From an uncultured Desulfobacterales bacterium (GTDB taxonomy: Bacteria > Desulfobacterota > Desulfobacteria > Desulfobacterales > C00003060), in assembly GCA_964430705.1 (NCBI GenBank), contig CAYSGJ010000186.1:892-64891 (forward strand): 64,000 nucleotides of DNA, given 5' to 3'. Every line of letters begins with the position of its first letter. Within the stretch, counting starts at the first letter, position 1. The notes beneath the pieces are model-generated. The model had not been told where the DNA came from. It saw nothing but the letters and a program-made list of their open reading frames with translations, and did no database searches. The position numbers and the translations under genes are program-made. This document shows positions 30,255 through 52,115 of the stretch, piece after piece.

Positions 30255-30476
30255 TCATTGACCTCCCGAGACGCCGGCCATGAATTTGCACTGGAGGTTA
30301 TATCCAAAAAAACGCGCAGAGCGGAACCGGAAAAGCATGGGATTGTCATGCAGCCGCGCCGAGAAGGGCCTCAAGATCTCGCCGAATAGTCGGTGATTTT
30401 TCAGAGGCCATTTTTTTTTGAAAGGCCATTGAGAAGGAAAGGGACAAAAGACAGGACGCCTATCGCATGCCACGCA

Positions 30477-30794
30477 TCAACGAGTAGCCCGCTTTGCTAT
30501 GGTGAGTACTTCCACAGACTCTATTTCAACGCTGTGCGTGTCCGCCATGCGCATACACCAGTGCCTGTATCTGCATTTCTCCTCGGCACAGGGAGGAATG
30601 GCTTTCCCAAAGCAGGCCAAGTTGCCTTCACTGATCTGCCTTTTGTGAATGATGGGAGATATCACTTCTTTGAAACATGGATCGCAAAGCGAGGAGCTGA
30701 TATCATCCGGCCCCCAAGGAATGACTGAATTTTTATGCCACTCTTTACCACATTTGACACACTTGACCCGCAACCTGTTCAATATCCCCACCAT
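30477..30794 (-). CDS. Small Cys-rich protein (CxxC...CxxC...CFG...C..C....C)
   Basis: The start is chosen at MVGILNRLRVKCVKCGKEW. It contains ...SLCDPCFKEV... and EGNLACFGKAIPPCAEEKCRYRHWC. It resembles small Cys-rich proteins common in deltaproteobacteria. Function unknown. Confidence 0.5.
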   Translation of the reverse strand: MVGILNRLRVKCVKCGKEWHKNSVIPWGPDDISSSLCDPCFKEVISPIIHKRQISEGNLACFGKAIPPCAEEKCRYRHWCMRMADTHSVEIESVEVLTIAKRATR

Positions 30795-31171
30795 GCCCTT
30801 TGCTGAATGGGATGCCCGGTTCCTTCGGAAAATCCATGCCGGCGCAAAGATTTTTTGTCTATAGTCGATTTGGATAGAAAAATCAAGGACTTTTTTTGGC
30901 AGGGCGGGCGCTTGTTCCAAGGCTTTAAAAAAGCGAACCCTTGGGTTGACTTATTACCGGCGTTTGGTTATAAGTTATACTTAAAAGCTGATGCTGCGTT
31001 TAAGCTAAGATGACATGGCCTGTTGTCATTTTCTTGGTATACGGGTAAACGACATGTACGAAGGATTCATTGATTCAGGATGTGATTTGCGTACAGGGTC
31101 GTCTCGTCGGCACAAAGGTTGTTTTTGATCAGGCCATCGTAGGTCCCGTGCGGAACTACAAGGAGGTTTGT

Positions 31172-31372
31172 ATGTGGCCAAAAGAACTTCCCACAGGGTC
31201 TTGGATTGACTGCCTGGATGCGATCGAGAACGAACTCGGTTCGCTGAGGAGACTCCGAAGCGATACCGGCAAGGGTCATGAGTTTCAGGAAAAACTTTCT
31301 CATCACGAGATGAAGGCCAAATTCGATCTCATCTGGCGATATGCCGGAAAGGCCGTCAAGGATCTTGAATAA
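31172..31372 (+). CDS. Small hypothetical protein (66 aa)
   Basis: An AAGGAGG RBS lies 5 nt before the ATG at 31172. A strong hairpin terminator follows directly. The overlapping minus-strand ORF 31067..31468 lacks both signals. Confidence 0.5.
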   Translation: MWPKELPTGSWIDCLDAIENELGSLRRLRSDTGKGHEFQEKLSHHEMKAKFDLIWRYAGKAVKDLE

Positions 31373-31373
31373 T

Positions 31374-31398
31374 CTTATGGCCATAAGGTGGCCATAAG
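31374..31398 (+). terminator. Intrinsic terminator (10-bp stem) made from an 11-bp tandem repeat
   Basis: CTTATGGCCA-taagg-TGGCCATAAG is followed by a T-rich tract (gtactttatgtttgtttctgtattt). It starts 2 nt after the stop at 31372. Confidence 0.65.
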
Positions 31399-31539
31399 GT
31401 ACTTTATGTTTGTTTCTGTATTTCCCGCCTTGTATCTCGTGGTTTCTGTGTAACCGTCCCGGCAACAATCCCCACTTTTTTTGAACAAATTACGTCAGTA
31501 CCGTAGAAGATGGCGGCCGGCCAACGGGATATTGAAATG

Positions 31540-31568
31540 TTGACAGGCGCAGCAACCTCCCATATACA
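31540..31568 (+). promoter_or_regulatory. Sigma-70-type promoter of the GAF-ANTAR gene
   Basis: TTGACA (31540-45), a 17-nt spacer, then TATACA (31563-68). The -10 element ends only 9 nt before the ATG at 31578. Confidence 0.5.
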
Positions 31569-31577
31569 AAACACGTT

Positions 31578-32273
31578 ATGGCAGATGAAGAAGATTTCCA
31601 GGATCATATTGTAGCCTTGTCCAGAATCAGCAAGGCCATTACCTCCGACCGGTATATTGAAGATATCCTTCGCTTGGTGGTCACTGCCACTGCAGAAACC
31701 ATGCGGTCGAAGATCTGTGCCCTTTGGCTTCTGGAAGAAGACGAAAGCACGTTGAAATTGCGGGCCACCCAGAGCATTAGTGAGGACTATCTGCGTGAGC
31801 GCTCCCTGAAGATTGGAGAAGGGGTTGTCGGCAAGGTTGCCCTTGCCAAACAATCCAGGGCGGTGCTCAATGTACTGGAAGACCCGGATTACAAAGAAAA
31901 AGATCTGGCAAAAAAAGAAGGTCTCATTTCCATGCTCAGCGTGCCCATGGTGGTCAAGGACAGGGTCATCGGCGTGATTAACTGCTACACATCTTATCGC
32001 CACGACTTTTCGGAAATGGAGAAAAACGTGCTGATCACCGTAGCCAATGCGGCGGCCGTGGCTATCGAAAACACCCAATTGATGGTAAAAACCACGGTCA
32101 TTCAAGAGGAATTGGAGTCAAGGAAGTTGGTTGAACGGGCCAAGGATGTCCTCATGGCAAAGCGGGGTCTGAACGGCACCGATGCCTATCGTTGGATTCA
32201 AAAACGCAGTATGGATGCCCGCAAGTCGATGCGCCAGGTTGCCGAGGCGATCCTGCTGACCGAAGAAATGTAA
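31578..32273 (+). CDS. GAF + ANTAR RNA-binding antiterminator-type regulator
   Basis: The N-terminal GAF domain has ICALWLLEEDESTLKLRATQ...VVGKVA...VIGVINCY. The C-terminal ANTAR domain has ELESRKLVERAKDVLMAKRGLNGTDAYRWIQKRSMDARKSMRQVAEAIL. Confidence 0.88.
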   Translation: MADEEDFQDHIVALSRISKAITSDRYIEDILRLVVTATAETMRSKICALWLLEEDESTLKLRATQSISEDYLRERSLKIGEGVVGKVALAKQSRAVLNVLEDPDYKEKDLAKKEGLISMLSVPMVVKDRVIGVINCYTSYRHDFSEMEKNVLITVANAAAVAIENTQLMVKTTVIQEELESRKLVERAKDVLMAKRGLNGTDAYRWIQKRSMDARKSMRQVAEAILLTEEM

Positions 32274-32360
32274 CCGCTGCTTTCCATCTGTCTTTTCTGA
32301 AAAAGGCCTTGACGGCCGACCTTATCTTGATGGTTTTTTCTCGGTTTCCCAATAAACGTC

Positions 32361-32390
32361 TTGACGTTCGTCCTTTAATTTTAGTATAAG
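32361..32390 (+). promoter_or_regulatory. Sigma-70-type promoter for the leader plus the GltB-like gene
   Basis: TTGACG (32361-66), an 18-nt spacer, then TATAAG (32385-90). Confidence 0.45.
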
Positions 32391-32395
32391 TAACA

Positions 32396-32507
32396 TTCCA
32401 GGCGAGATTGTAAGCCGTACTTGCCTGGAACTGGGATACAAAGGCGTATCACCGAAACAAAGACAATGAGGTCCAATGGCCCGCAATGGGTTGTTGGGCC
32501 TTTTTTT
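32396..32507 (+). promoter_or_regulatory. Structured 5' leader with terminator (candidate ANTAR-responsive attenuator)
   Basis: There is an 11-bp hairpin TTCCAGGCGAG...CTTGCCTGGAA (32396-32430). A hexaloop hairpin GATAC-AAAGGC-GTATC follows (32435-50), with loop A1 and G4. CAATG occurs at 32464, 32474 and 32484. The terminator spans 32478-32507. Confidence 0.5.
32478..32507 (+). terminator. Leader intrinsic terminator, 30 nt upstream of the GltB-like start
   Basis: GGCCC-gcaatgggttgtt-GGGCC is followed by TTTTTTT. The AGGAGGA RBS and the ATG at 32537 lie just downstream. Confidence 0.6.
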
Positions 32508-32536
32508 GTCAATACTGCTTAAATGAGGAGGACGCT

Positions 32537-34120
32537 ATGAATTTACATCGACCCAATGCGAACGAGGCCCTGCGGACCAAAAACCGGTCACGTGATGTCG
32601 CGCCTCAATCTGGAATTTGCAGCAGGTGTATTGACGGGTGCAGGGGCAACTGCGACCTGTTCAATGCCACATTCCGTGGAAGAGAATTGTTGTATCCGTC
32701 TCCGTTTGGCGAAATCACCGCAGGCGCCGACAAAGACTATCCGGTGGACTACTCCCATCTCAACATTATGGGGTATGCCCTGGGAGCCGAGGGCGCCGAT
32801 GCTGATTCGGACCGGGCTACTTTTCCGGCCGTAAATACGGAGACATCCTTTGGCGTTACGGATCAGGTGAAGATGAAGATTCCCATGTTCACGGGAGCAC
32901 TGGGCAGTACGGAAATTGCGAGAAAAAACTGGGAACACTTTGCGATCGGTGCCGCCATTACGGGAATCACCCTTGTTTGTGGTGAAAACGTCTGCGGAAT
33001 TGACCCCAAGCTGGCGTTGGACAAACACGGGAAAGTGAAGGACTCACCGGATATGCGGCGCAGAGTGGAAGAATACCGCCGATATCATCAAGGGTACGGG
33101 GATATCCTCGTCCAACTGAATGTAGAAGATACACGGCTTGGCGTCGCCGAATATGTTTTGGACAAACTCGGTGTTGAGACCATTGAGCTGAAATGGGGCC
33201 AGGGCGCCAAGTGTATCGGCGGGGAGATCAAGGTCAACTCTCTGGAGCGGGCCCTGGAACTAAAAAAGCGCGGCTACATTGTAACGCCCGACCCCGAAAG
33301 GAAGGCGAATCAGGCGGCATTCAGGGACGGCGCCATCACCGAGTTTGAACGTCATTCGCGTCTCGGGTTTGTGGACCAAGAAGGCTTTATGGCAGAGGTC
33401 TCGCGACTTCGCACATTGGGCGCCAAGCGTATTACCCTAAAGACCGGCGCCTACCCCATGCGTGAACTGGCCATGGCCATACGTTGGTGTTCTGATGCCA
33501 AAATAGACCTTCTGACCATCGACGGGGCGCCGGGAGGAACCGGTATGAGCCCCTGGCGCATGATGGCTGAATGGGGTATGCCTTCCATTTATCTGCATTC
33601 CATGGCCTATGAACTGTGCCACCGACTTGCCGACAAGGGGGCCCGGGTTCCCGATATTGCCTTTGCAGGCGGCTTTTCATCCGAGGACCACATATTTAAG
33701 GCCCTTGCCCTGGGAGCGCCTTTTTGTAAGGCCGTCTGTATGGGAAGGGCTCTCATGATTCCCGGTATGGTGGGAAAAAATATCGGCCGTTGGATCAACG
33801 GCGAAGACGGCGGTCTTCCCAACACCGTTTCCAAGTATGGTTCCACCAAAGAAGAAATATTCGCATGCTACGAGGAGTTGAAAGAAAAATATGGAAAAGA
33901 AACCGACAAGCTCCCATTAGGGGCCATTGGCATTTATAGTGCTTCGGAAAAAATCCGGGTGGGTCTTCAGCAGTTGATGGCCGGCGCCAGAAAATGGCGT
34001 GTGGACCTCATGTCCAGAAACGACCTGGCCGCTTTGACCGAAGAGGCCTCTAAGATAACCGGGATCCCGTACATTATGGATGCGTACAGAGAGGAAGCAC
34101 TGGCAATCCTGGATGCCTGA
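32537..34120 (+). CDS. Stand-alone glutamate-synthase-related FMN-binding protein (GltB domain-2 family), paralog 1
   Basis: The start is chosen at MNLHRPNANE after an AGGAGGA RBS. The N-terminal Cys cluster is CSRCIDGCRGNCDLF. The family motifs are ELKWGQGAK and IDGAPGGTGMSPWRMM. Confidence 0.85.
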   Translation: MNLHRPNANEALRTKNRSRDVAPQSGICSRCIDGCRGNCDLFNATFRGRELLYPSPFGEITAGADKDYPVDYSHLNIMGYALGAEGADADSDRATFPAVNTETSFGVTDQVKMKIPMFTGALGSTEIARKNWEHFAIGAAITGITLVCGENVCGIDPKLALDKHGKVKDSPDMRRRVEEYRRYHQGYGDILVQLNVEDTRLGVAEYVLDKLGVETIELKWGQGAKCIGGEIKVNSLERALELKKRGYIVTPDPERKANQAAFRDGAITEFERHSRLGFVDQEGFMAEVSRLRTLGAKRITLKTGAYPMRELAMAIRWCSDAKIDLLTIDGAPGGTGMSPWRMMAEWGMPSIYLHSMAYELCHRLADKGARVPDIAFAGGFSSEDHIFKALALGAPFCKAVCMGRALMIPGMVGKNIGRWINGEDGGLPNTVSKYGSTKEEIFACYEELKEKYGKETDKLPLGAIGIYSASEKIRVGLQQLMAGARKWRVDLMSRNDLAALTEEASKITGIPYIMDAYREEALAILDA

Positions 34121-34149
34121 GATGGAAACGGATCACTTGGACGCCCTTT

Positions 34150-34189
34150 AAAAAACGGCGGAACCCCCATCAGGTTTCGCCGTTTTTTT
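34150..34189. terminator. Bidirectional intrinsic terminator between the convergent GltB-like genes
   Basis: AAAAAACGGCG-gaacccccatcaggttt-CGCCGTTTTTTT, with an A-tract and a T-tract on opposite sides. Confidence 0.7.
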
Positions 34190-34242
34190 ACAACCGTCCG
34201 CCATCCGTGCCGTCCGCGTAAACGCCTCTTCGCCGGCACGCG

Positions 34243-35820
34243 CTATCCCAGGATTTTTTCTACTTCCTCCGCGTCCATGTCGGACACCAACGGTATGCCG
34301 CTGACCCTTGACGCATCAGGGGTCAGAGCTGCAACATCATTGGTGCTTATATGTTCGACCGAGAATTTACGCGAACCGCACATCAACTGACGCAGTCCCT
34401 GGGCAAGCCGCTCGTAGTATGTATACAGACCGATAGCCCCCGCGGGAATCCGGTCGTAATCCTTACCGTATTGTCTTTTCAGCTCTTCCGCGGTCACAAA
34501 GATGGACTCCTTGGTTTGTCCGAAGCGCTGGATAAAGATGGGAAGCTCATCGCTTTCTATGGCCTTGCCGATAGTCTTTCCGACCATGGCCGCGGCTAGC
34601 GGCGCCCTTGCCATGGTAATGGCTTTACAATACGGAGCGCACAGGGCCAACCCCTTGAACATCTGATCTTCCATAGTAAATCCGGCAGCCAGCGTGACGT
34701 CGGCAACGTATTCGCCCTTTTGTGCAAGACGATCGCAGTATTTGCGTAGAAGCGACCACAGCTCCACCGTGGGGATGCCCCATTCGTTCATCATGCGCCA
34801 GGGGCTCATGCCGGTGCCCCCGCCGGCCCCGTCAACGGTTAAATAATCGATCTTGGCGACGGACGAAAACTTGACGGCACGGGCCAGGTCCGCCGGCCGA
34901 TACGCACCGGTCTTTAAGGAAATATATTTTGCGCCGGCCTTACGCAGTGCTTCCACCCGCGCCACAAAGGCTTCCTCGGAAACCATCCCCACCCGGGAAT
35001 GCCGCTCAAACTCGGTAAAAAGGCCCTTCTTGAAATCCTCGATCGTCGAAAACTGAAGAGGATCGGGAAGCACCACGTATCCGCGCTTTTTAAGCAGCTG
35101 CGCCTTTTCAAGACTCTTTATTTTCACTTCCCCGCCGATATCTTTAGCCCCTTGTCCCCATTTCAACTCGACGACCTCGACCCCAAGTTTCTCGATGCCG
35201 TACTCCTGGGCCTTCAGGTACGTATCTTCTACATTGGACTGCAAAACAATCGCCCCGTATCCATCACGCTGCCAGTCCTTAAAAAGACTGACCCTACGCT
35301 CCAACTCTGGAGAGCGGATGACCCTGCCATTTTTTATTTCAGCGTTGGCATCCATGCCGCACACATTTTCGCCTATCGTGAGAACGGTCCCCGCCAGCGC
35401 GGAGCCTATGGCAAGACCATCCCAGTTTATCTCAGCCACATTCGTGGAACCGAGGCCCCCGATTACAATCGGCAACCGCAACTTGATCCCCTTGTCGTGT
35501 CCCAGCCTCGTCTCGATGTTTACGTTCGGGAATATCGCCTTGTCGGAATCTTCTTCGATTCCAACAGCCCCCACCGTGGTGCCCATAATGTTGAAATGCG
35601 ACAAATCAACGGGATAGTCCTTCTGAGATGCCATGGTGGTAATTCCGAACGGCTGGGGGTAGATGACTTCATGGCCACGGTATGCGCTTTTTCCTATCTC
35701 GCACATGCCGATGCAGCCATCCACGCAAGTCACGCACATGCCGCTGATCGGGCACCAATCTCCGCCCGTTCTGTTCTTGCTCAACGTGGCGGCAGTTGCA
35801 TTATACCGTGTCAAGGTCAT
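34243..35820 (-). CDS. Stand-alone glutamate-synthase-related FMN-binding protein, paralog 2 (last gene of the NuoEF-like operon)
   Basis: 525 aa with the Cys cluster CVTCVDGCIGMCEIG and the motifs ELKWGQGAK and VDGAGGGTGMSPWRMM. It is clearly paralogous to 32537..34120. Confidence 0.85.
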   Translation of the reverse strand: MTLTRYNATAATLSKNRTGGDWCPISGMCVTCVDGCIGMCEIGKSAYRGHEVIYPQPFGITTMASQKDYPVDLSHFNIMGTTVGAVGIEEDSDKAIFPNVNIETRLGHDKGIKLRLPIVIGGLGSTNVAEINWDGLAIGSALAGTVLTIGENVCGMDANAEIKNGRVIRSPELERRVSLFKDWQRDGYGAIVLQSNVEDTYLKAQEYGIEKLGVEVVELKWGQGAKDIGGEVKIKSLEKAQLLKKRGYVVLPDPLQFSTIEDFKKGLFTEFERHSRVGMVSEEAFVARVEALRKAGAKYISLKTGAYRPADLARAVKFSSVAKIDYLTVDGAGGGTGMSPWRMMNEWGIPTVELWSLLRKYCDRLAQKGEYVADVTLAAGFTMEDQMFKGLALCAPYCKAITMARAPLAAAMVGKTIGKAIESDELPIFIQRFGQTKESIFVTAEELKRQYGKDYDRIPAGAIGLYTYYERLAQGLRQLMCGSRKFSVEHISTNDVAALTPDASRVSGIPLVSDMDAEEVEKILG

Positions 35821-35859
35821 CCTGTAGCTCCTTTCGCTTCTTGTAATAACTGCAATGTA

Positions 35860-36525
35860 TCAAAAGGCCTTATGGCCTTTGCTTCCCACGCTTTCCGAGC
35901 AACCCACGCAAACGGGGCAGGTCTGTACGGGCCGGATATTCTGGCAACCGCCACAAAGGCCGTCCACCAAGTTTCCGGCCAGGCAGGCACGTTCGCACAC
36001 CGGACAGATCCACTCACATCCGCCGCAGTTGCGGCATTCTTCCGGTGTTACCCCGAAGGCGGCGGCAACTTTGCGTGAAGTACCCCGCCCGACAAAACCG
36101 ATGCCTCCGGACTGCATTTGCTCCTTGCAATACCGGACGCAAAGCCCGCAAAGAATGCATCCCTTGTCCTTTATGGTAAATCGGACCTTGTTGACGCCGA
36201 AATTTGACGCCATGTCCTGCAAGGTCTTTGAGTTGGGGCAGGACGACAAAAGAAGTTCCAGAATGATCTTTCTGGCCGCCTTGACTTTTCCGGAGTCCGT
36301 CAGAATCACCTGTCCATCCGAAACCGGCAGGGTGCAGGACGCCTCCAGTGACGAATTGTTGCCCTTGACCACCTCAACAATACAGATGCGGCAGGCGCCG
36401 TATGCGCTCAGACCGGGATGGTGGCAAAGTGTCGGGATGAAAATCCCCAAAGCCGCAGCGGCCTCCAGAACCGTCGTCCCTTTCGGCGCTTTGCTCTTGA
36501 CGCCGTCAATAGTAAGCTCGACCAT
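35860..36525 (-). CDS. 2Fe-2S plus 4Fe-4S iron-sulfur subunit (NuoG/HydA N-terminal-like)
   Basis: MVELTIDGVKSKAPKGTTVLEAAAALGIFIPTLCHHPGLSAYGACRICIVEV, followed by CILCGLCVRYC and CRNCGGCEWICP clusters. Confidence 0.8.
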   Translation of the reverse strand: MVELTIDGVKSKAPKGTTVLEAAAALGIFIPTLCHHPGLSAYGACRICIVEVVKGNNSSLEASCTLPVSDGQVILTDSGKVKAARKIILELLLSSCPNSKTLQDMASNFGVNKVRFTIKDKGCILCGLCVRYCKEQMQSGGIGFVGRGTSRKVAAAFGVTPEECRNCGGCEWICPVCERACLAGNLVDGLCGGCQNIRPVQTCPVCVGCSESVGSKGHKAF

Positions 36526-36537
36526 ATTTGTTCCTCG

Positions 36538-38397
36538 CTATGAAACAATAACCGCGTTGACTTTACAGACGTCCCGGCACAGTCCGCACTTGATGCATTG
36601 TTCCTGGTCAATGGTGTGGGGCTCTTTCTTTTTGCCCGAGATAGCTTCCTGCGGACACCTCCGGGCGCATTGCATACAGCCGTTGCATGCGTCTTCATCA
36701 ATGGTAAAGGTGATAAGCGCTTTGCACACACCCGCCGGGCACCGGTTTTCTTTTATGTGCGCCTCGTATTCCGCGCCGAAGTATCGAATGGTGGAAAGAA
36801 CGGGGTTGGGTGCCGTGCCTCCCAGAGCGCATAAGGAGGTCTCTTTGATGGCTGCGCCAAGTTCTTCAAGCAGCTCGATACTTCCTTGTTTGCCTCGGCC
36901 TTCGGTGATGTCGGTAAGGATGTCGAGCATTCTGTCGAGCCCCACGCGGCATGGAACACATTTGCCGCACGATTCCTCGGTCAGAAATTTTACGAAATAT
37001 TTGGCCACATCCACCATGCAGGTCGATTCATCCATGACAATCATGCCGCCCGAACCCATGATGGATCCAACCTCTTTGAGCTTGTCAAAATCAACGGGCA
37101 GATCGATCAGGCTCTCAGGGATACAGCCCCCCGAGGGACCTCCCGTTTGAACCGCCTTAAATTTTTTGCCGTTGGGAATTCCTCCTCCAATGTCGTCAAT
37201 GATCTCCCTGAGCGTCATGCCCATCGGCACTTCGACAAGGCCCGTATTGTTTATTTTGCCCACCAGCGAAAATATCTTGGTCCCTTTGCTTCCCTCGGTC
37301 CCGATTCCGGAATACCACCGCGCACCGCGGTTAATGATAACCGGCACATTGGCCCAGGTCTCGACATTGTTGAGCGTGGTGGGTTTTCCGTGCAAGCCGT
37401 TGACGGCTGTGTGAACATGTTTCGACCGGGGTTCGCCGATTTTCCCTTCCAAAGAAGCCATCAGGGCGGTCGATTCGCCGCAGATGAAAGCCCCGCCTCC
37501 CCGGGAGATCTTGATGTTGAACCGGAAACCCGAGCCGAGAATGTTCTCTCCGAGAAGACCCAGTTCGCGGGCCTGATTCAAAGCGATTCCAAGGTTCTTC
37601 ACCGCCAGGGGATACTCGTGGCGCACGTACACATACCCTTCACTGCTCCCGACGGCATAGGCCCCTATGAGCATGCCTTCGATGACGCTGTGCGGATTGC
37701 CCTCCAGCAAGCTCCTGTCCATATACGCGCCCGGGTCGCCCTCATCGGCATTGCAGATAACGTAGCGCGTCCCATTTCTTGACGGGGCGTTCTTGCAGGA
37801 TTCCCATTTTCTGCCCGTCGGAAACCCGCCGCCGCCGCGGCCGCGAAGACCCGATTTCTTTATTTCCTCGACAATTTCCTCCGGTGCCATTTCAAACAAC
37901 GCTTTGACCAAAGCCGAATATCCGCCGATGGCCAGGTAGTCTTCCACGCTGGTCGGATCAATAAGACCATTGCCGCCCAACACCAGTCTTTGCTGCCTTC
38001 GGTAAAAAGGCACTTCGTATTCATGGGTTATCTTCTTGCTGCTTACCGGGTCGGTATACAACAGTCTTTCGATGACATTATTGTCAAGTACCGCCTCCTG
38101 GACTATTTCGGGGACATCTTTTGGTTTGACCCGGACATACATCGTTTCTTCGGGGCGACTTACCACCAGGGTCCCGCACTCGCAGAACCCATGGCAACCG
38201 GTCAGTTTCACATCCATTTTGTCGCCGGCTCCCAGACGTTGCACTTCGTCCTTGAACGCGGTGTATACCTCTTCACACCCGTGTGCCCGGCAGCCGGTTC
38301 CGCCGCAAACGCCTATACAAGGTTTTCCCGACTTATGCTGCGTGGCAAGACGTGCTCTTAGTTTTTCGAGGTGAATTGGAGACTGCAACTTTTTCAT
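36538..38397 (-). CDS. NuoF/HydB-like NAD(H)-binding FMN flavoprotein with an N-terminal thioredoxin-like 2Fe-2S domain and C-terminal 2x[4Fe-4S]
   Basis: 619 aa. Motifs are IGVCGGTGCRAHGC, GLRGRGGGGFPTGRKW, ICNADEGDPGA and ESCGKCVPCR. The C-terminal clusters are CNGCMQCARRCP and CIKCGLCRDVC. Confidence 0.88.
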   Translation of the reverse strand: MKKLQSPIHLEKLRARLATQHKSGKPCIGVCGGTGCRAHGCEEVYTAFKDEVQRLGAGDKMDVKLTGCHGFCECGTLVVSRPEETMYVRVKPKDVPEIVQEAVLDNNVIERLLYTDPVSSKKITHEYEVPFYRRQQRLVLGGNGLIDPTSVEDYLAIGGYSALVKALFEMAPEEIVEEIKKSGLRGRGGGGFPTGRKWESCKNAPSRNGTRYVICNADEGDPGAYMDRSLLEGNPHSVIEGMLIGAYAVGSSEGYVYVRHEYPLAVKNLGIALNQARELGLLGENILGSGFRFNIKISRGGGAFICGESTALMASLEGKIGEPRSKHVHTAVNGLHGKPTTLNNVETWANVPVIINRGARWYSGIGTEGSKGTKIFSLVGKINNTGLVEVPMGMTLREIIDDIGGGIPNGKKFKAVQTGGPSGGCIPESLIDLPVDFDKLKEVGSIMGSGGMIVMDESTCMVDVAKYFVKFLTEESCGKCVPCRVGLDRMLDILTDITEGRGKQGSIELLEELGAAIKETSLCALGGTAPNPVLSTIRYFGAEYEAHIKENRCPAGVCKALITFTIDEDACNGCMQCARRCPQEAISGKKKEPHTIDQEQCIKCGLCRDVCKVNAVIVS

Positions 38398-38905
38398 CTG
38401 TTTTGCGCCTCGGGGATTCCTCGTATTTAGCCATTAACCTCTCGGCTTTACCCACATTCATATTTGCATTGTACTGGCCGTCCACAACCACGATCGGGCC
38501 CAGAGCGCATGCCCCCAGGCAGTTGACGCTCTCGAGTGTAAACTGCATGTCCGGCGTCGTTTCACCGGCCGCTATACCCAAACGCCTTTCCATTGCCTCC
38601 AGGACCCGGGGCGCCCCTCGGACGTGGCAGGCCGTACCAAGACAAACGCTGCACAGATGTTCACCCCGCGGCGTCAGGCTGAACGCCTTGAAAAATGTCG
38701 CCACGCCGTAGACCTGAATCAGCGGCAGCCTCACACTGTCGGCGACTTGCCTGATGGCTTGTTCGGGGAGGTAGTGATATTCCGATTGCACATCTTGAAG
38801 TATCGAGATCAGTGAATCAGGGTTTCCACCGTAACTCCTGATAATATCCTCTACAGGATCGACAACGTTTTCTACGGCTCTTGCCGCTTGCATAACCCGC
38901 CCCAT
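38333..38905 (-). CDS. NuoE/HydC-like 2Fe-2S thioredoxin-fold subunit
   Basis: The start is chosen at MGRVMQAARAV after an AAGGGAGA RBS. Motifs are SILQDVQSEYHYLP, CLGTACHVRG and NCLGACALGP. Its 3' end overlaps the next gene by 65 nt. Confidence 0.8.
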   Translation of the reverse strand: MGRVMQAARAVENVVDPVEDIIRSYGGNPDSLISILQDVQSEYHYLPEQAIRQVADSVRLPLIQVYGVATFFKAFSLTPRGEHLCSVCLGTACHVRGAPRVLEAMERRLGIAAGETTPDMQFTLESVNCLGACALGPIVVVDGQYNANMNVGKAERLMAKYEESPRRKTDEKVAVSNSPRKTKSTSCHAA

Positions 38906-39084
38906 TTCCCATCTCCCTTGCCGATACGGCCGAAAATGTCTGCCCGATTGGTTCGCATTGCTCGAAGATCCCCCCGGCGTTTTGCCGGGCCGCAAGCATG
39001 CCGATCGATTGCTCTGAACCGATGCCCCCGCGTTCATCACGCCAAGCGCTTACGGCAAGGAGCAATCAAGGCCGTTTTACGACA

Positions 39085-39396
39085 TCAGCGATCCTTGCCT
39101 TCGCAAAGCCTTCTGACGTAGTCCAGGTTATGCCGGAGCATCCACATTCTTTCCAAAAACTCCGGCCAACCGCACCGCGGCGTGAAACCGTCTTTAACCT
39201 CAGGCGACACCAAAACCCCGTGCGTCACGGAGCCTTGCAACTCATTCCATATGTCTGCCCATGTATCGAGAGCATCCTGTAGAACCGATCCCGTTACATT
39301 CCGAAAATGCAGGAGCTTTTCTTCGGGCAGCATTCCCTTGTAGCGTTGTTGCTCTCCTTCACCTGTACGTGAAATGACCCTGAATTCTCTGGGCAT
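39085..39396 (-). CDS. Small uncharacterised protein, tandem paralog B (103 aa)
   Basis: MPREFRV...LLHFRNVTGSVLQDALDTWADIWNEL...CGWPEFLERMWMLRHNLDYVRRLCEG. The start has an AAGGGGA RBS. It is paralogous to the upstream ORF. Confidence 0.6.
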   Translation of the reverse strand: MPREFRVISRTGEGEQQRYKGMLPEEKLLHFRNVTGSVLQDALDTWADIWNELQGSVTHGVLVSPEVKDGFTPRCGWPEFLERMWMLRHNLDYVRRLCEGKDR

Positions 39397-39424
39397 CGTT
39401 GCATCCCCTTTTCCCAAGGTGTCG

Positions 39425-39742
39425 TCAAAAAGAGCCGTCGCAAAGCCTCTTGGTGTAGTCTATGTAATGCCTGAGCAGATCCAGCTTTTTCCTGAGCTCC
39501 GGCCAGCCGCAAGCCGGAAGTCGGGCTTGGGGCTCCTCAACCCCTTCAAGTATGTCTTCACATGTCCGGGGATCTTTGCAGACCTCCCAAATCTCTTCCC
39601 AGAGTATGAACGCGTCACTCAGCACGCCGGCTGCCACGCCTCGAAAATGTCTCATCTTCGCGTTCGTGCGTTCAATCTCCCTTTTGATGGCGTCGTCGGG
39701 GCTATTTTCAGTCTTTGCCACGGCCCCGGTTGCTTCTTGCAT
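39425..39742 (-). CDS. Small uncharacterised protein, tandem paralog A (105 aa)
   Basis: ...KMRHFRGVAAGVLSDAFILWEEIWEV...CGWPELRKKLDLLRHYIDYTKRLCDG. It is the first ORF downstream of the sigma-54 promoter. Confidence 0.6.
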   Translation of the reverse strand: MQEATGAVAKTENSPDDAIKREIERTNAKMRHFRGVAAGVLSDAFILWEEIWEVCKDPRTCEDILEGVEEPQARLPACGWPELRKKLDLLRHYIDYTKRLCDGSF

Positions 39743-39856
39743 TTTTCATAGCCCTTTCTTTGGCGATGAGTCGGGTACTTGGAAACACGTCGAGAGGCTT
39801 CCGCAGAACCGTTTCGGTAGCCGAACCACAAACATTTTCACAAATTCAGGCTTCAG

Positions 39857-39873
39857 AGCAAGGCGTATGCCAG
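39857..39873 (-). promoter_or_regulatory. Sigma-54 (-24/-12) promoter
   Basis: The reverse complement reads CC-TGGCAT-ACGCC-TTGCT, with canonical GG/GC spacing. It is about 115 nt upstream of the ATG at 39742. Confidence 0.7.
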
Positions 39874-39968
39874 GTGTGGGGCCGCGCTAAAACAACAGGC
39901 TAACTGCCTGTAATTAAACGCACAAATGGATCCGGCCGTCGAATGGTTTCATTGGCGAGACAATTGGT

Positions 39969-39986
39969 TGTGGTGCTCAAACACCA
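39969..39986. promoter_or_regulatory. Inverted repeat, possible enhancer-binding-protein site
   Basis: GTGGTG-ctcaaa-CACCAC lies about 100 bp upstream of the sigma-54 promoter and next to the NtrC-family gene. Confidence 0.3.
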
Positions 39987-40104
39987 CCCGGAACGGGGGT
40001 TTCATATGCACGAACCGCCGCAAACGTGAATGACCATGCGGGACGGCGAAGCTGTTCAGATTTTGATCAGCACTGTTGCTTTTCAAACAACGACGGGAAG
40101 GTTT

Positions 40105-41550
40105 CTATGGGGAATCCGGATCTATATGGTATTTTTTTTTCCTGTGTCTCAATGTATTGCGGCTGATTCCAAGCATTTTGGCGGCCCTTACCTGGTTGTT
40201 GCCGCATTCCTCAAGAGCCCTTGATATCAACATTTCCTCGACCACTTCTATAACATTGGCGTGCACGCTTTCATTGGAAAACCGCAAGATGTGGGTAACA
40301 AGTTCCGCCAGTTTGTCCTTGAGCTTATCAGGGAGCTGTTCGCGGCCGTCGGTTTCCCGTACTTTATGGGGGTCTCCCTCGAGCTTGACATGCTCATCGA
40401 GAATCACATCCCCCGCGGATAAGAGGACCGCCCGTCTCACGCAGTTTTTTAATTCCCGGACATTTCCCGGCCAGGAATGGGACTGGAGTTTATGCACCGC
40501 GCTATCCGCGACATAGCGAACAGGCTTGTTATAATCTTTGCTGAATCGCCCCACAAAGTAGTCCAGAAGCGCGGGGATATCTTCAAGGCGCTCTCTGAGC
40601 GGAGGCAGTTGGATAGAAATAATCTTCAGTCTCCAGTAAAGGTCTTCTCTGAACTTGCCTTCTTTCACGGCTTTTTCCAGGTTCTTGTTGGTAGCCGCGA
40701 TGGTCCTCGTATCGACCTTTATCGTCTCGGTTCCTCCCAGTCTTTCGAGCTCTCCTTCCTGCAGCACACGCAACACTTTGGCCTGGGTCGGCAAGGACAT
40801 ATCTCCGATTTCATCAAAGAAGATTGTTCCTCCGTTACATCGTTCCAGCTTGCCGATGTGAGTATGCTCCGCTCCCGTAAAAGCGCCGCGTTCATATCCA
40901 AAAAGCTCGCTTTCGAACAAGGTATCCGGTATAGCCGCGCAGTTGACGGTAAGAAACGGTTTGTCTTTTCTGTGGCTGTGGTGATAGATGGCGCCTGCGA
41001 CGAGTTCTTTGCCCGTTCCGCTTTCACCGGTAATGAGAACGGTGACATCTTTACCCGCTATCTGCCCTATGAGCTTGTAAACCTCCTGCATTTTTCTATG
41101 GTTGCCGATGATCTCAACCATCCCTTTTAATTCGGTTGGCGAGACCTTGATGAGTTCACTGGGAAAGCTGACCACTTCTTTCATCAGACGATTGACTTCA
41201 AGGGCATCAACAACGACACGGCTTAATTCCGCCCTGTCGAACGGCTTCAGCAGGTAATCATAAGCACCGCGCTTCATGGCCTCGATTGCCGTCTCCGTGG
41301 TGCCGTATGCCGTCATAACAATGACAGGTGTTTTAATCTGAAGTTTTCTAATTTCCTTTAAGGTGTCAAGTCCGCTTAGTCCCGGCATCTTGTAATCAAG
41401 CAGTATCAAATCAAACTGCGCTTCAGCCAGCATGTCGAGTCCGGATGAGGCATCGGTACAAGCGACGACGTCATAGCTTTGCTTAGAGAAGAAGCGACTG
41501 AGAAAGTGAATCAAGCCCTCATCATCATCCACTATCAATATCTTTTCCAT
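40105..41550 (-). CDS. Sigma-54-dependent response regulator (REC-AAA+-Fis HTH, NtrC family)
   Basis: MEKILIVDDDEGL...; Walker A GESGTGKE; GAFTGA loop; C-terminal NQVRAAKMLGISRNTLRHRKKKY. Confidence 0.9.
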   Translation of the reverse strand: MEKILIVDDDEGLIHFLSRFFSKQSYDVVACTDASSGLDMLAEAQFDLILLDYKMPGLSGLDTLKEIRKLQIKTPVIVMTAYGTTETAIEAMKRGAYDYLLKPFDRAELSRVVVDALEVNRLMKEVVSFPSELIKVSPTELKGMVEIIGNHRKMQEVYKLIGQIAGKDVTVLITGESGTGKELVAGAIYHHSHRKDKPFLTVNCAAIPDTLFESELFGYERGAFTGAEHTHIGKLERCNGGTIFFDEIGDMSLPTQAKVLRVLQEGELERLGGTETIKVDTRTIAATNKNLEKAVKEGKFREDLYWRLKIISIQLPPLRERLEDIPALLDYFVGRFSKDYNKPVRYVADSAVHKLQSHSWPGNVRELKNCVRRAVLLSAGDVILDEHVKLEGDPHKVRETDGREQLPDKLKDKLAELVTHILRFSNESVHANVIEVVEEMLISRALEECGNNQVRAAKMLGISRNTLRHRKKKYHIDPDSP

Positions 41551-41554
41551 GCCC

Positions 41555-43402
41555 CTAAATTCCTTGCGCAGCAATAGATGGAAGAAAAACCGAAAAAGTG
41601 GTGCCTTCACCTTCAGCGCTTTGAACCTTTACGGCGCCTCCATGACGGCCGACGGTGCTTTGCACAATGGACAGCCCAAGCCCGCTACCGGAGGCCTTGG
41701 TAGTAAAAAACGGATCAAAAAGCTTTGAGATGTTTTCCGTTTTTATGCCCGGTCCCGTGTCGCAAACATCTATCCGCACACACGCGCGCAGCTTACCGTC
41801 CCTTTCGCATCGGTCCGGCATTGCGGAAACTATGAGCCTCCCATGGCTCGTCATTGCTTCCAGTGCATTTACCATCAAGTTCAACAACACGTCTCCGAGT
41901 TGCTTTTTGTCCCCTCTTATTTTAGGCAGGTTGTCATCCACCATCACCTGCAAGGCAACCTGCTGATGATTCGCTTTCGGCTTTACGAGCAACAAGGCGT
42001 CTTCAATCAGTTGCGCTGTGTCGATCGTGGAAAATATGGGTTCTTGAGGTCTTGCATAGTCAAGAAAGCGGTTGATGGTGGTCTCTATACGCTTCACCTG
42101 GTGCATGGCAATGTGAAAGTCTTCTTGATACTCCGGCGAAATTTCTATCTCCCCGCGCACCGATTCCAAGAACAGTTTCAGAGAGGTAAGAGGCGTCCTT
42201 ATCTCGTGGGTAACACCGGCGGCCAGGCGCCCCAGCGCTGCAAGCTGTTCTGAACGCGCAGCGGCCAATTCCGTTTTTTTCAGTTTTACATCCGTTTGTC
42301 TCAGTTCCTCCTGGGTCAAGTCCGCCTTTTCTTTAAGGCCGATCTGCCTTTCCTGAAGCCGGTTCGCCATATGCTGAAAAGCATGATACAAGGACCCGAT
42401 TTCATCGGTGCGATCGGTTTTGACTGCCGCCGCCTGGAATTCGCCTCCGGCCAGGGCGTTGGCGGCCTCGCTTAAAGTTCGAATAGGCTGAGCGATATAA
42501 AAAGACAGGAGTAATGCGACAACCATCGCCCCACACGCTGAAAACGCCAATACCAGATAGACGTATCGCTTCAGACCATCCGCGCTCCTAAATGCTTCGT
42601 CTCTATCCTGCTCCACCACAAGGTACCAATCCGTGTCGGCAACCCTTCGGGAAGCACCCAAAACCTCTATCCCCCTATAATCGTCATATATTTTCCCGTG
42701 GTCCGGGCTGCCGAATATTTTCTTGAAACTTCCCGACTGTGCGATGTTTTCCGTCAATATCCGCCGCGGTTCCTTGTGGGCTAAAAATGTCCCGCTGCCA
42801 TTGACCAAATAGCACTCTCCGGTTTGGCCAAGCTGTACGCGCAGGATAATCGACAAGATGGTTCGGGTGCCCACGGCAGCGCACACCACGCCCTTGACTG
42901 TGCCGGCATCCCCGACCACGGGGGCCGAAACCCGAAAAACAGATTGTTTGCTGTCGGGATTAAAGAAGATGGGCGATAGATATGGTTTGCCGGCCATCGT
43001 TTCTTCATACCATGGTTCTTCCGTATTATGAACGTGACCACCCCAGGAGTCGACAACAACCGCTCCCTCACTGGATATCACGACAAACCCCTCATAGACG
43101 CCATATTTTTCTTGCACTAATTTCAGGTACGGGGTGATTTGTTCAGCGTCCATCTGTTTGAGGATGGATGAGCCGGCAACCACCTGGAGATCTCCCCGCC
43201 GCTCCGAAAGCCACCTTTCCAACAGTGCCGCCTTGTCGGTAGCCACGTTTTCAAGTTCATTGGACACCATGTTCGTAATGATGTCTTCAGCGGTTTTTAT
43301 GGAAAAAGCGCCGACGATTCCGAGCGGTATTAAGGCCACCAGAAGAAAAAGAATCCCCACTTTGATCTGCAAATTATTGACAAGGAAAGGAATCTTGCCC
43401 AT
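41555..43402 (-). CDS. Sensor histidine kinase (periplasmic Cache-like domain, HAMP, HisKA, HATPase_c)
   Basis: Two TM segments flank a sensor domain of about 260 aa. The H-box is AAGVTHEIRTPL. The N/G boxes are LLNLMVNALEAM and DTGPGI...GSGLGLS. Confidence 0.88.
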   Translation of the reverse strand: MGKIPFLVNNLQIKVGILFLLVALIPLGIVGAFSIKTAEDIITNMVSNELENVATDKAALLERWLSERRGDLQVVAGSSILKQMDAEQITPYLKLVQEKYGVYEGFVVISSEGAVVVDSWGGHVHNTEEPWYEETMAGKPYLSPIFFNPDSKQSVFRVSAPVVGDAGTVKGVVCAAVGTRTILSIILRVQLGQTGECYLVNGSGTFLAHKEPRRILTENIAQSGSFKKIFGSPDHGKIYDDYRGIEVLGASRRVADTDWYLVVEQDRDEAFRSADGLKRYVYLVLAFSACGAMVVALLLSFYIAQPIRTLSEAANALAGGEFQAAAVKTDRTDEIGSLYHAFQHMANRLQERQIGLKEKADLTQEELRQTDVKLKKTELAAARSEQLAALGRLAAGVTHEIRTPLTSLKLFLESVRGEIEISPEYQEDFHIAMHQVKRIETTINRFLDYARPQEPIFSTIDTAQLIEDALLLVKPKANHQQVALQVMVDDNLPKIRGDKKQLGDVLLNLMVNALEAMTSHGRLIVSAMPDRCERDGKLRACVRIDVCDTGPGIKTENISKLFDPFFTTKASGSGLGLSIVQSTVGRHGGAVKVQSAEGEGTTFSVFLPSIAAQGI

Positions 43403-43802
43403 GAATCCATCCTATCTTCCCAAGCAACACCAAATAGATAAAATTACACCAACGCTCTGATTCATGTCAACGCTCAACGGGCTCCCAGATCCACCGGCTG
43501 CCAAGTTTGCCGGAAATGCTGTAATCAAAAAAACAGACTCGTTCTTCGTTTTTCCGGCGGTGGATTTGGGGACTGCCGGATCCGGGAACTTATGTGGGAA
43601 GGCCGGCCTTAAAGTCCGGTTCGCTTTTTTAATCACGGAACGGCATGGATGGAGGCAAAAGTTGTTGGCCAAAAGAGCGCCGGGGGCCGCCATGGCGCGC
43701 TCCAGGGATGCTTATGGACACATGGCCTTGGAAATGATCAACGCATTCATGGACATCGGTTCGGTTTTTTGGGTTGAATAAGGGTTTTCGATTTGCAACC
43801 CG

Positions 43803-45101: not shown

Positions 45102-45681
45102 GGGGTTGTCTCCTTGGCAACAAAGCCGTTTGCATTTGCCTGTTGCCGGCGAAAAATCTATTTCAGATCAGTCGGTTTTGGTCATTTAATATTGTTTGCG
45201 GCTTACGCCTTGAGAACATCACGGATTTTTATGCCGGGTAAGTTGAATTCGTCCCTCTCTTCGGGGCTTCCTGATACCACCCGATTCGCGGATAAGAAAT
45301 TAATTAATCATATCAGAGGCGTCGGCAGTGTCAACTTCGGTCTTTTTTCGGTATTTCAAATTGTTAAAGGAGCAATCATTGGGAGGAAACAGAAAACGGA
45401 TTGCAGGTTCACGCGATTGTATCTCGGGAAAAAGACGGGGCGAAAAGGTCGTATTGGTTGGAAGGGCGGCGATCCTGGCCGCCGGCATACCATCCAAGCC
45501 CGACACGTAGTAAGCGCTACTGGATATCCAAGAGATGCGGTCGGATGGCGATCAGTTCTACGGCAAGTATTCGACGCCTGTTCTTCCAAACCGGCCTCAT
45601 CTTGAATACGGCAGTGGAGGCGGCCAAGCTTCATTGTAATCCGTATAAGCCCAGTGGCAGCAGTCCCGTGATCCGGACCAC

Positions 45682-45897
45682 CTATACCCCATTGCCATAT
45701 TCCGTAATGGTCAGCACGACCGGTTTCTTCGTGAGGCCTTCGATAGAGAGGTAAGCGGCACCCTGTGTGTACAGCCCGTCCTCAATCTTCTGGACCAATG
45801 TCTTCAACGTACTATCGGTGTCCGGGGTGATGCTGATTTTGGTCTTTGCTTGCACCGTGCGGTTGTCATCAGACAGTTGTAAGTTGATGTTTTTCAT
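45682..45897 (-). CDS. Small hypothetical protein (71 aa)
   Basis: MKNINLQLSDDNRTVQAKTKISITPDTDSTLKTLVQKIEDGLYTQGAAYLSIEGLTKKPVVLTITEYGNGV. AT-rich palindromes lie upstream. Confidence 0.4.
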   Translation of the reverse strand: MKNINLQLSDDNRTVQAKTKISITPDTDSTLKTLVQKIEDGLYTQGAAYLSIEGLTKKPVVLTITEYGNGV

Positions 45898-52086: not shown

Positions 52087-52115
52087 TTGACAAAGGACCA
52101 TGCTTTATATATATG
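52087..52115 (+). promoter_or_regulatory. Sigma-70-type promoter of the second glutamine synthetase gene
   Basis: TTGACA (52087-92) is followed 15-17 nt later by TATATATATG, giving several possible -10 registers. Confidence 0.5.

Follow-up and report, generated by a model that had tools for sequence, protein, structure and literature searches.

Positions 34243–39872 of the window, by which we mean the whole 64,000-nucleotide stretch of contig CAYSGJ010000186.1 from an uncultured Desulfobacterales bacterium, carry a minus-strand gene unit with the subunit set, cofactor motifs and gene order of a four-subunit Fe–S flavoenzyme, whose products we infer to form a single complex. Three of the proteins resemble BfuA, BfuB and BfuC, the core of the Bfu family of electron-bifurcating enzymes, and the fourth, here called FMN525, is a 525-amino acid Fe–S/flavin mononucleotide (FMN) protein with a triose-phosphate isomerase (TIM) barrel, remotely related to glutamate synthase (GltS). 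The reading that we favor, tentatively and at somewhat less than an even chance, is that of a nitrogen-regulated, Bfu-type reductase of a 2-oxo or imino acid, most plausibly one that forms glutamate from ammonia; both bifurcation and amination of 2-oxoglutarate by the complex are predictions from sequence.

In the scheme proposed, NADH would be oxidized at the FMN of BfuB, and ferredoxin would exchange electrons at the C-terminal clusters of the same subunit. Electrons would pass through the clusters and the Cys-rich tail of BfuA to the N-terminal cluster of FMN525 and on to its FMN, which would reduce a substrate that bears a carboxylate and a C=N or C=O group. The likeliest reaction would turn 2-iminoglutarate, which arises from 2-oxoglutarate and free ammonia, into glutamate by reduction. 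The enzyme would then be an amidotransferase-less relative in function of glutamine:2-oxoglutarate aminotransferase (GOGAT), powered by NADH, alone or together with reduced ferredoxin. 2-Iminoglutarate is the leading candidate because of the nitrogen-related gene context and the GltS kinship, and free ammonia is the presumed nitrogen source because no glutaminase is linked to the cluster in any of the loci compared. Expression is predicted to depend on sigma-54 and on the adjacent dCache kinase/NtrC-type activator pair, with two small open reading frames (ORFs) as co-transcribed accessories.

Organization of the Unit and Its Electron-input Module

The unit is bounded by a sigma-54-type −24/−12 element at one end and a bidirectional terminator at the other. 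In the direction of transcription it comprises two small paralogous ORFs, BfuC (NuoE-like), BfuB (NuoF-like), the BfuA-like subunit and the Fe–S/FMN TIM-barrel protein (Table 1). As judged from ORF coordinates, two of the intergenic gaps measure 12 and 39 nt, with a 65-nt overlap between the NuoE-like and NuoF-like genes. An earlier note on this DNA had described these ORFs, their order, gaps, overlap and domains, and the ORF map and Pfam searches agreed with that description throughout, on the minus strand.

The start of the NuoE-like gene was placed at about 38905 because the Pfam domain begins at residue 64 of the ORF. The protein matches PF01257 (2Fe-2S_thioredx) with an E value of 6e-48, and its best matches in the PDB are HydC (7P5H_C), BfuC (7T2R_C), HydC (8A6T_C) and WorC (9MQX_C). 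For the NuoF-like protein, Pfam identified Complex1_51K, SLBB, NADH_4Fe-4S and two C-terminal Fer4 domains, together with a weak N-terminal 2Fe-2S_thioredx match, giving a layout of N-terminal [2Fe-2S] domain, FMN/NADH site, SLBB, NuoF [4Fe-4S] cluster and C-terminal ferredoxin-like 2×[4Fe-4S] domain. It could be aligned over its full length with WorB (9MQX_B; E = 2e-241). The next PDB matches were BfuB of the NiFe-Bfu hydrogenase, HydB, NfnB and StnB. The alignments to WorB, HydB and NfnB take in both extra domains, whereas the chains of non-bifurcating NuoF and FdsB aligned only to residues ~148–550. The extra BfuB clusters are known to separate bifurcating from non-bifurcating homologues (Schut 2022, PMC9304861).

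The BfuA-like subunit contains one [2Fe-2S] and two [4Fe-4S] clusters, followed by a C-terminal tail with 7 conserved cysteines. Across 63 homologues the cluster cysteines and the 7 tail cysteines are conserved at 97% or more, 12 of the cluster cysteines at 100%. Its best PDB match is WorA (9MQX_A; E = 3.5e-37), a small type-2 BfuA, and like type-2 BfuA it lacks a His-ligated cluster; it also has no catalytic domain of its own. In "type 2" Bfu enzymes, extra subunits feed the small BfuA (Schut 2022, PMC9304861). All three window subunits carry the domains by which BfuABC is recognized, and by this measure they are a genuine BfuABC (HydABC-type) module. The earlier note had proposed such a module, a HydABC-type NuoEF pair with additional clusters, and the full-length matches to bifurcating BfuB, BfuA and BfuC chains bear this out.

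FMN525, the Putative Catalytic Subunit

Glu_synthase (PF01645) is the sole significant Pfam family of FMN525, which scores 36.9 bits against a cut-off of 20.4 and covers profile positions 185–298 of 369 only. Homologues exist in thousands, named just "FMN-binding glutamate synthase family protein" or "glutamate synthase domain-containing protein 2," and NCBIfam holds no model for FMN525 or its paralog. Pairwise identity to the FMN domain of the window's own GltB is 21% (E = 0.011). Searches of the PDB with phmmer and with a 14-sequence FMN525 profile returned noise and no GltS. By hhalign, FMN525 aligned to the FMN domains of GltS with 97% probability (E = 9e-11, 329 columns, ~20% identity). 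It keeps the lysine of the QGAK motif (K226, corresponding to Synechocystis K972), which is invariant, as well as the FMN-phosphate motif and the GGTGxSP loop (T336, corresponding to T1065); the loop reads DGAGGGTGMSP, as in GltS. The segment aligned with the [3Fe-4S] ligands of GltS (Cx5Cx4C; C1137, C1143 and C1148 in Synechocystis) contains no cysteine.

At its N terminus FMN525 has the motif C29-x2-C32-x3-C36-x3-C40. This cluster motif and GGTGMSPW, both pointed out in the earlier note, are invariant in 105 homologues, in an alignment that spans three subfamilies. The family also has invariant motifs of its own, such as F271-E-R-H-S275. By these alignments FMN525 is a distinct deep branch of the FMN-barrel superfamily and not a GltB orthologue, and its nearest sequence family is, remotely, the GltS synthase domain. 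Its previous designation as "GltB-type" holds only as a statement of remote, superfamily-level kinship, given the low identity and the missing [3Fe-4S] ligands. Pfam searches of the unit's proteins found no glutaminase, GXGXG (PF01493) or GltD part, in agreement with the earlier note, and no central domain.

A structural model of FMN525 was computed with AlphaFold2 (AF2) from the 105-sequence alignment. The model (predicted local distance difference test, pLDDT, 82.6; predicted template-modeling score, pTM, 0.86) is confident and has a TIM barrel and a helical C-terminal region. An earlier model from a shallow alignment was poor (pLDDT 55), and its Foldseek ranking was set aside. Foldseek searches with the better model retrieved type-II isopentenyl diphosphate isomerase (IDI-2), glycolate and lactate oxidases, flavocytochrome b2 and ferredoxin-dependent GltS (Fd-GltS; 1OFD, rank 10). 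The alpha-hydroxy-acid oxidases are thus structural neighbors (E ~1e-10 to 1e-9, TM score 0.43–0.46); against their Pfam family, PF01070, FMN525 gave no match and the paralog scored below threshold (16.7 bits versus 24.9). Where these oxidases carry their catalytic His...Arg motif, FMN525 has the GltS-like loop DGAGGGTGMSP.

Distribution, Synteny and Two Forms of the Cluster

One genome per species was scanned with two conserved peptides as the pattern. This gave at least 600 pattern matches with 590 confirmed relatives, and the best 80 of at least 590 confirmed relatives were taken for locus comparison. Being found through peptides, the related loci (numbered with the prefix L) cover that part of the orthologous group with at least 66% identity (tblastn), and their ORF calls are crude. 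The matches, at least 590, come from more than 20 phyla, archaea included. Carriers include Dehalococcoidia, Desulfobacterota-like metagenome-assembled genomes (MAGs), Planctomycetota (including Ca. Scalindua), Aminicenantes, Zixibacteria, Ignavibacteria, Bacteroidota, Chlorobiaceae, Bacillota (Dethiobacter), Acetothermia, Latescibacterota, Actinomycetota, Altiarchaeales and Methanophagales/ANME-1. The earlier note had put forward conservation of gene order across Desulfobacterota as a check; the unit is not specific to Desulfobacterota.

In each of the 85 loci the FMN gene is immediately preceded by the BfuA-like gene, save in L021, where the contig ends, and BfuB was found in 76 of the 76 loci with sufficient upstream DNA. 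The four-gene core is syntenic in every relative taken with enough flanking DNA, so that the pairing of the module with the FMN subunit, as envisaged in the earlier note, is fixed in all relatives examined. Identity to the window proteins is 66–86% for FMN525 (tblastn), 48–77% for BfuB, 40–79% for BfuA and 37–70% for BfuC. The idea that the BfuABC-like proteins and FMN525 are separate enzymes that are adjacent by coincidence we regard as scarcely credible, in the face of a gene order kept unchanged in 85 loci, archaeal ones included, from more than 20 phyla, of the tight spacing and of a small BfuA that has no catalytic domain of its own. A single complex is preferred because of this invariant order, the tight gaps and the conserved cysteines of both the BfuA tail and the FMN525 N terminus.

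Two forms of the cluster could be distinguished by BfuB. In the short form, that of the window (~38 loci), BfuB is ~620 amino acids long with the C-terminal 2×[4Fe-4S] domain. In the long form (~33 loci), it is ~1030–1100 amino acids long and carries GltD/NfnL-like Fer4_20 and Pyr_redox_2 domains instead of the ferredoxin-like C terminus; this GltD-like domain has FAD and NAD(P)H motifs, including a GGGN...YRR nucleotide motif. FMN525, the best-conserved subunit of the cluster, is present in both forms. Many long-form loci also have a NuoE-like subunit of ~280–340 amino acids (e.g. L038:3237–4085) with a C-terminal extension of ~130 amino acids that contains four CxxC-type pairs and is Zn-ribbon-like.

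The domain exchange bears on whether ferredoxin takes part at all. The complex could be a plain NADH-dependent reductase uncoupled from ferredoxin, using NADH and NADPH in the long forms, with the extra Bfu-like domains as wires or vestiges. That about 33 loci replace the ferredoxin-like domain with a GltD-like one suggests that the ferredoxin branch is dispensable, and the presumed substrate lies, by estimate, above NADH in potential. We nevertheless consider this explanation unlikely, in that the window BfuB retains every cluster domain and aligns over its full length with proven bifurcating enzymes, whereas non-bifurcating homologues are without these clusters (Schut 2022, PMC9304861).

One locus of a Dethiobacter alkaliphilus MAG (L023) contains two FMN-subunit genes (2129–3712 and 8001–9584), whose products share 58 and 70% identity with FMN525 of the window. 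Just downstream of the first copy, and upstream of the BfuABC-like genes, is a gene for an IclR-type regulator.

Nitrogen-metabolism Genes Around the Cluster

Neighboring genes were clustered across the 85 loci. The commonest non-core neighbor is glutamate dehydrogenase (GDH), found in 16 loci from many phyla and on the same strand in all but two. One of these GDHs scores above the NADP-GDH equivalog cut-off, and in L036 the GDH gene overlaps the stop of the FMN gene by 4 nt. Other recurrent neighbors are NrpR-like regulators (8 loci), glutamine synthetase (4–5) and NadE (3); sigma-54 activators are frequent. Genes of no non-nitrogen pathway recur. The window itself encodes GlnE, two glutamine synthetases, NadE and a split GOGAT (Table 1), and sigma-54 motifs recur upstream of the cluster in relatives. 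NrpR senses 2-oxoglutarate in methanogens. A physical complex of GOGAT and GDH (GltAB–GudB) in B. subtilis is reported in a preprint (bioRxiv 10.1101/2021.04.12.439528) and provides a precedent for a functional GOGAT–GDH pairing.

The frequency of GDH, together with the one copy above the NADP-specific cut-off, would also fit a complex that acts mainly as a transhydrogenase of the Nfn/Stn kind and keeps NADH, NADPH and ferredoxin in balance for an adjacent NADP-GDH, with FMN525 as an accessory or regulatory electron sink. The long forms do join a NuoF NADH site to a GltD-like site of the NADPH type, as in NfnABC/StnABC (PMC12018979). Such a role is nonetheless very unlikely for the cluster: FMN525 is its best-conserved protein, occurs also in short forms without the NADPH domain and retains two motifs of a catalytic barrel, QGAK and the FMN-phosphate one.

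The earlier note had also suggested that FMN525 might borrow subunits from the split GOGAT at 55541–60621. This found no support: an amidotransferase, GXGXG protein or canonical GltB near the core was detected by tblastn in none of 87 related loci, and matches to the window's GXGXG–GltD protein were confined to its GltD part. Borrowing was rejected as a general explanation since no related locus carries these proteins.

In Dehalococcoidia and a few others, an NrpR-like regulator gene and a lone hisF lie directly up- or downstream of the cluster, with no further his genes near; in L002 the two overlap by 4 nt. A role for hisF as a dedicated ammonia-channel partner was considered and not adopted, as it scores above the equivalog cut-off like an ordinary hisF and its occurrence is lineage-restricted.

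Weighing the Proposed Reaction

In addition to the nitrogen context and the GltS kinship, the fusion found in long forms points in the same direction, since a GltD-like domain in a complex with an FMN barrel recreates the GltD plus FMN-domain pairing of GOGAT. Several observations weigh against glutamate formation. Of the three synthase-site residues that could be mapped (Lys972, Gln978 and Arg992 of GltS), only Lys972 is kept. By hhalign, Gln978 corresponds to an invariant E231, and Arg992 to Leu242 with K244-K245-R246 right behind it; a naive ungapped alignment had equated R246 with Arg992, which was overturned by hhalign and two anchors. Foldseek scores of the FMN-barrel families are alike (TM score 0.42–0.47), with GltS not favored over IDI-2 or the alpha-hydroxy-acid oxidases. 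With glutaminase, central-domain and GXGXG genes at none of 87 loci, free ammonia would be needed, and canonical GltS is poor with free ammonia. The host, moreover, already encodes a complete split GOGAT in addition to the FMN525 paralog.

Energetic and regulatory considerations point the same way. The 2-oxoglutarate/glutamate couple lies, by estimate, above NADH in potential, and for a high-potential amination of this kind a Bfu module is not obviously needed; in known Bfu enzymes the third substrate is "mid-potential" (PMC12318220). The exchange of the ferredoxin-like for a GltD-like domain in long forms implies that ferredoxin coupling is not family-wide. Finally, the dCache sensor suggests that the inducer is a particular small molecule and not nitrogen status in general.

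The same BfuABC–FMN525 architecture may instead act on a substrate other than 2-iminoglutarate, a reading that we rate as somewhat less likely than glutamate formation. The substrate, nitrogen-related or a carboxylate, might be another 2-oxo, 2-hydroxy or 2-imino acid, a cyclic imine, or a heterocyclic C=C bond as in dihydropyrimidine dehydrogenase (DPD), and the role could be nitrogen scavenging or amino-acid fermentation. The pairing of a dCache kinase with an NtrC activator, present here, suits substrate-induced catabolic operons. The remoteness of the GltS kinship is equally in favor, as the model is just as near to alpha-hydroxy-acid oxidases, IDI-2 and barrels of the inosine monophosphate dehydrogenase (IMPDH) type, and so is the loss of the Arg992 and Gln978 equivalents beside family-specific motifs such as the F271–S275 one. 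A mid- or low-potential acceptor would be better suited to known Bfu logic, and a GltD-like module feeding an FMN barrel through Fe–S clusters is also the design of DPD (PMC8097209). Set against these points, the recurrent neighbors are specifically GDH, glutamine synthetase and NrpR-like regulators with no rival pathway among them, and Glu_synthase alone is significant in Pfam.

A reductase forming glutamate from ammonia therefore stays our preferred, if tentative, interpretation. Its most far-reaching version, a new and very widespread Bfu-type electron-bifurcating class whose third substrate is an amino-acid/2-oxo-acid couple (a "bifurcating glutamate synthase/dehydrogenase"), we consider decidedly unlikely. 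Such an enzyme could work in either of two modes: NADH and reduced ferredoxin could together pull ammonia into glutamate without ATP or a glutaminase, or an exergonic NADH-dependent amination of 2-oxoglutarate could yield reduced ferredoxin.

Comparison with Known Systems

Among the closest known systems is WorABCSL, the bifurcating tungsten aldehyde oxidoreductase of Acetomicrobium mobile (PDB 9MQX; PMC12318220), a type 2 BfuABC enzyme. Both have a BfuC, a BfuB of ~620 amino acids with an identical domain set and a BfuA of ~220–250 amino acids that holds one [2Fe-2S] and two [4Fe-4S] clusters and no catalytic domain. Both, on the proposed reading of the unit, leave the third substrate to separate subunits; in WorABCSL these dock on the C terminus of BfuA, which is a zinc finger plus helix (PMC12318220). 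The two differ in the catalytic module, which is an Fe–S/FMN TIM barrel in the unit and the tungstopterin protein WorL with the polyferredoxin WorS in WorABCSL, and in the BfuA tail, with 7 conserved cysteines in the unit and a 4-Cys zinc finger plus helix in WorABCSL. The activity of the unit, unlike that of WorABCSL, is a prediction.

With GltS (NADPH-GltS alpha/beta and Fd-GltS; PDB 1EA0, 1OFD and 6S6X), the unit shares a homologous FMN barrel with the QGAK lysine and GGTGxSP, an Fe–S cluster feeding the FMN (predicted in the unit) and a nitrogen-assimilation gene context; the long-form relatives alone share, in addition, a GltD-like NAD(P)H/FAD/2×[4Fe-4S] module in the same complex. Unlike GltS, the unit has no glutaminase, central domain or beta-helix, is only ~20% identical, carries an N-terminal Cx2Cx3Cx3C motif in place of the Cx5Cx4C [3Fe-4S] site and would receive its electrons from a NuoEF/Bfu module. 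Domain definitions of GltS and the GltD plus FMN-domain design were taken from PMC8097209. The window's split GOGAT likewise has a stand-alone PF01645 FMN subunit with N-terminal Fe–S domains. In contrast to FMN525, this subunit is closely related to GltB (E = 1e-22 to 2e-25 against solved GltS chains) and is flanked by a weakly amidotransferase-like ORF and a GXGXG+GltD+ferredoxin fusion.

The transhydrogenases NfnABC and StnABC (PDB 9N5U and 8OH5; PMC12018979, PMC10482914) have the BfuBC core in common with the unit and carry a GltD/NfnL-like NADP(H) domain, as do the long-form relatives and unlike the window enzyme. The domain resides in the A subunit (StnC) in Nfn/Stn and at the BfuB C terminus in long forms, and Nfn/Stn lack an FMN TIM-barrel subunit. 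DPD/PreTA resembles the long forms in running from a GltD-like NAD(P)H/FAD module through an Fe–S chain to a substrate-reducing FMN TIM barrel (PMC8097209). It differs from them in that its barrel is dihydroorotate dehydrogenase (DHODH)-like and no NuoEF module is present; pyrimidine-pathway genes are not linked to the unit.

The literature searched, including the Bfu classification and its supplement, yielded no description of a Bfu/NuoEF module with a GltB-like subunit, and, as the earlier note had stated, no characterized enzyme of such composition was found. Papers retrieved on Pelotomaculum, deep-sea Chloroflexi, Margulisbacteria, heliorhodopsin and Cedars isolates had no bearing on it. 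In that classification 18 of 57 clades are uncharacterized, and the word "glutamate" does not occur in its text or supplement (PMC9304861). The parts, namely the Bfu core and a barrel of the GltS superfamily, are known; the combination, the N-terminal cluster motif, the BfuB–GltD fusion and the breadth of distribution appear to be undescribed. The BfuABC family is a current focus in anaerobic energy coupling, and the unit points to a gap in the published classification. If glutamate is formed from free ammonia with NADH and ferredoxin, textbook accounts of nitrogen assimilation by glutamine synthetase–GOGAT and GDH would miss a route across much of the anoxic biosphere, and "glutamate synthase family protein" annotations would need revision. 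A bifurcating glutamate enzyme would couple nitrogen assimilation directly to the ferredoxin pool, and would do so in anaerobes from over 20 phyla. Were the substrate another, the unit would still represent a new catalytic module on a bifurcating core.

Promoter, Terminator and Regulators

The −24/−12 element, TGGCATACGCCTTGCT, which the earlier note had recognized as TGGCAT-N5-TTGCT, is the sole exact match to TGGCAY-N5-TTGCW within 64 kb. For this pattern 0.28 matches are expected by chance, and at least one was obtained in 22% of shuffles, so the motif taken alone is weak. Its position lends support: the element follows directly on the sigma-54 activator gene, ~115 nt ahead of the first ORF. 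Equivalent motifs precede the cluster in L001, L005 and L007, as well as in the more distant loci L019, L039, L073 and L082. The element, its spacing and the adjacent enhancer-binding protein are together those of a sigma-54-dependent operon, as which the unit is predicted. At the other end, folding revealed the bidirectional terminator that the earlier note had reported and a simple terminator scan had overlooked, a hairpin at 34150–34188 with a 16-bp stem preceded by an A6 run and followed by a U7 run. Folding energy is −27.4 kcal/mol on each strand (z-scores −7.2 and −4.2). An Rfam scan of 30000–46000 gave no match.

The NtrC-family activator probably regulates the unit. Its synteny with the cluster extends to L001, L005 and L006, and many loci, among them those of Zixibacteria, Phycisphaerae and Scalindua, have a weaker homologue upstream of the cluster. 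The predicted two-component control through sigma-54 and the NrpR-like neighbors offer direct handles for expression work.

The two small ORFs are paralogs, 40% identical across 75 amino acids (E = 1e-19). The ATG at 39396 is probably the real start of the second, because alignments of homologues begin at query residue 8 of the listed ORF. Neither matches Pfam or NCBIfam. Their small family of stand-alone proteins of ~100 amino acids falls into 92 clusters when grouped at 50% identity, of which 63 match with E ≤ 1e-10, and homologues of the first lie upstream of the cluster in L001, L005, L006 and L007. In distant lineages another small Cys-rich ORF (90–150 amino acids) lies between the sigma-54 activator and GDH or NuoE genes. 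It has a duplicated motif, GLCxxC...CE.F(D/E) followed by GLCxxCE...GG(V/I)WHCEEY, and no Pfam or NCBIfam match, and may correspond to the pair of small ORFs in the window.

Table 1. Coordinates of the unit, its surroundings and selected features of related loci
Feature	Position	Strand	Basis or remark
FMN525, Fe–S/FMN TIM-barrel catalytic subunit (putative), 525 aa	34243–35820	−	PF01645, hhalign, AF2
BfuA-like subunit, 221 aa	35860–36525	−	Fer2_4 + 4Fe-4S dicluster
BfuB/NuoF-like subunit, 619 aa	36538–38397	−	Pfam and PDB matches
BfuC/NuoE-like [2Fe-2S] subunit	38333–38905	−	start inferred at internal ATG; ORF open to 39040
Small ORF 2, ~103 aa from ATG at 39396 (listed ORF from TTG at 39417)	39085–39396	−	paralog of ORF 1
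Small ORF 1, 105 aa	39425–39742	−	ORF; CGWPE...RLC(D/E)G motif
Sigma-54-type −24/−12 promoter element	39857–39872	−	TGGCAT-N5-TTGCT
Bidirectional intrinsic terminator, common to unit and convergent paralog gene	34150–34190	both	folding
NtrC-family sigma-54 activator, REC + AAA+ + HTH_8	40105–41550	−	Pfam, NCBIfam
Sensor kinase dCache_1-HAMP-HisKA-HATPase, partner of the activator	41555–43402	−	Pfam; syntenic in L001, L005, L006
Convergent stand-alone FMN525 paralog, 527 aa	32537–34120	+	52% identical; shares N-terminal 4-Cys motif
GAF-ANTAR regulator upstream of paralog	31578–32273	+	Pfam; pairing repeated in L070
GlnE adenylyltransferase, 1273 aa	46263–50084	−	unusually long; weak ACT-domain match in N-terminal extension
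Glutamine synthetases, two	50304–51728 and 52113–53516
NadE, glutamine-dependent NAD synthetase	53637–55301
Split archaeal-type GOGAT	55541–60621	+	three ORFs
Long-form BfuB example, NuoF–GltD fusion, ~1050 aa	L022:4061–7222		and about 30 other loci
Small Cys-rich ORF of distant lineages	L019:1177–1542, L038:2727–3182, L039:2823–3176, L032:2574–2894, L046:2413–2712, L050:2769–3185, L063:2884–3159, L073:4083–4445, L083:4102–4443
NrpR-like/hisF loci	L002:5118–6886, L011, L013–L015, L033, L048, L057, L061

Other Genes of the Window

The convergent FMN525 paralog is linked to the cluster in L005, L010, L025 and L070. Its 5′ leader (32274–32536) lies directly downstream of the GAF-ANTAR gene and contains a strong intrinsic terminator at ~32467–32507 on the plus strand (15-bp stem and U7), just ahead of the ribosome-binding site and the ATG at 32537. 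The leader gave no match in Rfam and looks like an ANTAR antitermination switch. In Thermodesulforhabdus norvegica, the paralog adjoins an NrpR-like gene. A regulator of 432 amino acids is encoded at 43803–45101 on the minus strand of the window; it has HTH_3 and Cupin_2 domains, a C-terminal half that resembles PuuR and an N terminus that weakly resembles KaiC. A 431-amino acid homologue (L086:6087–7382) stands immediately ahead of the FMN paralog in Desulfoferula mesophila.

The three parts of the split GOGAT are a class-II amidotransferase-like ORF with weak matches (E = 0.0086), a ferredoxin+GltB FMN subunit (PF01645, E = 3e-56) and the GXGXG+GltD+ferredoxin fusion. The G+C content of this region is 59–62%, against a fraction of ~0.50–0.55 in the rest of the window, and the long antisense ORFs that run across it are probably artifacts.

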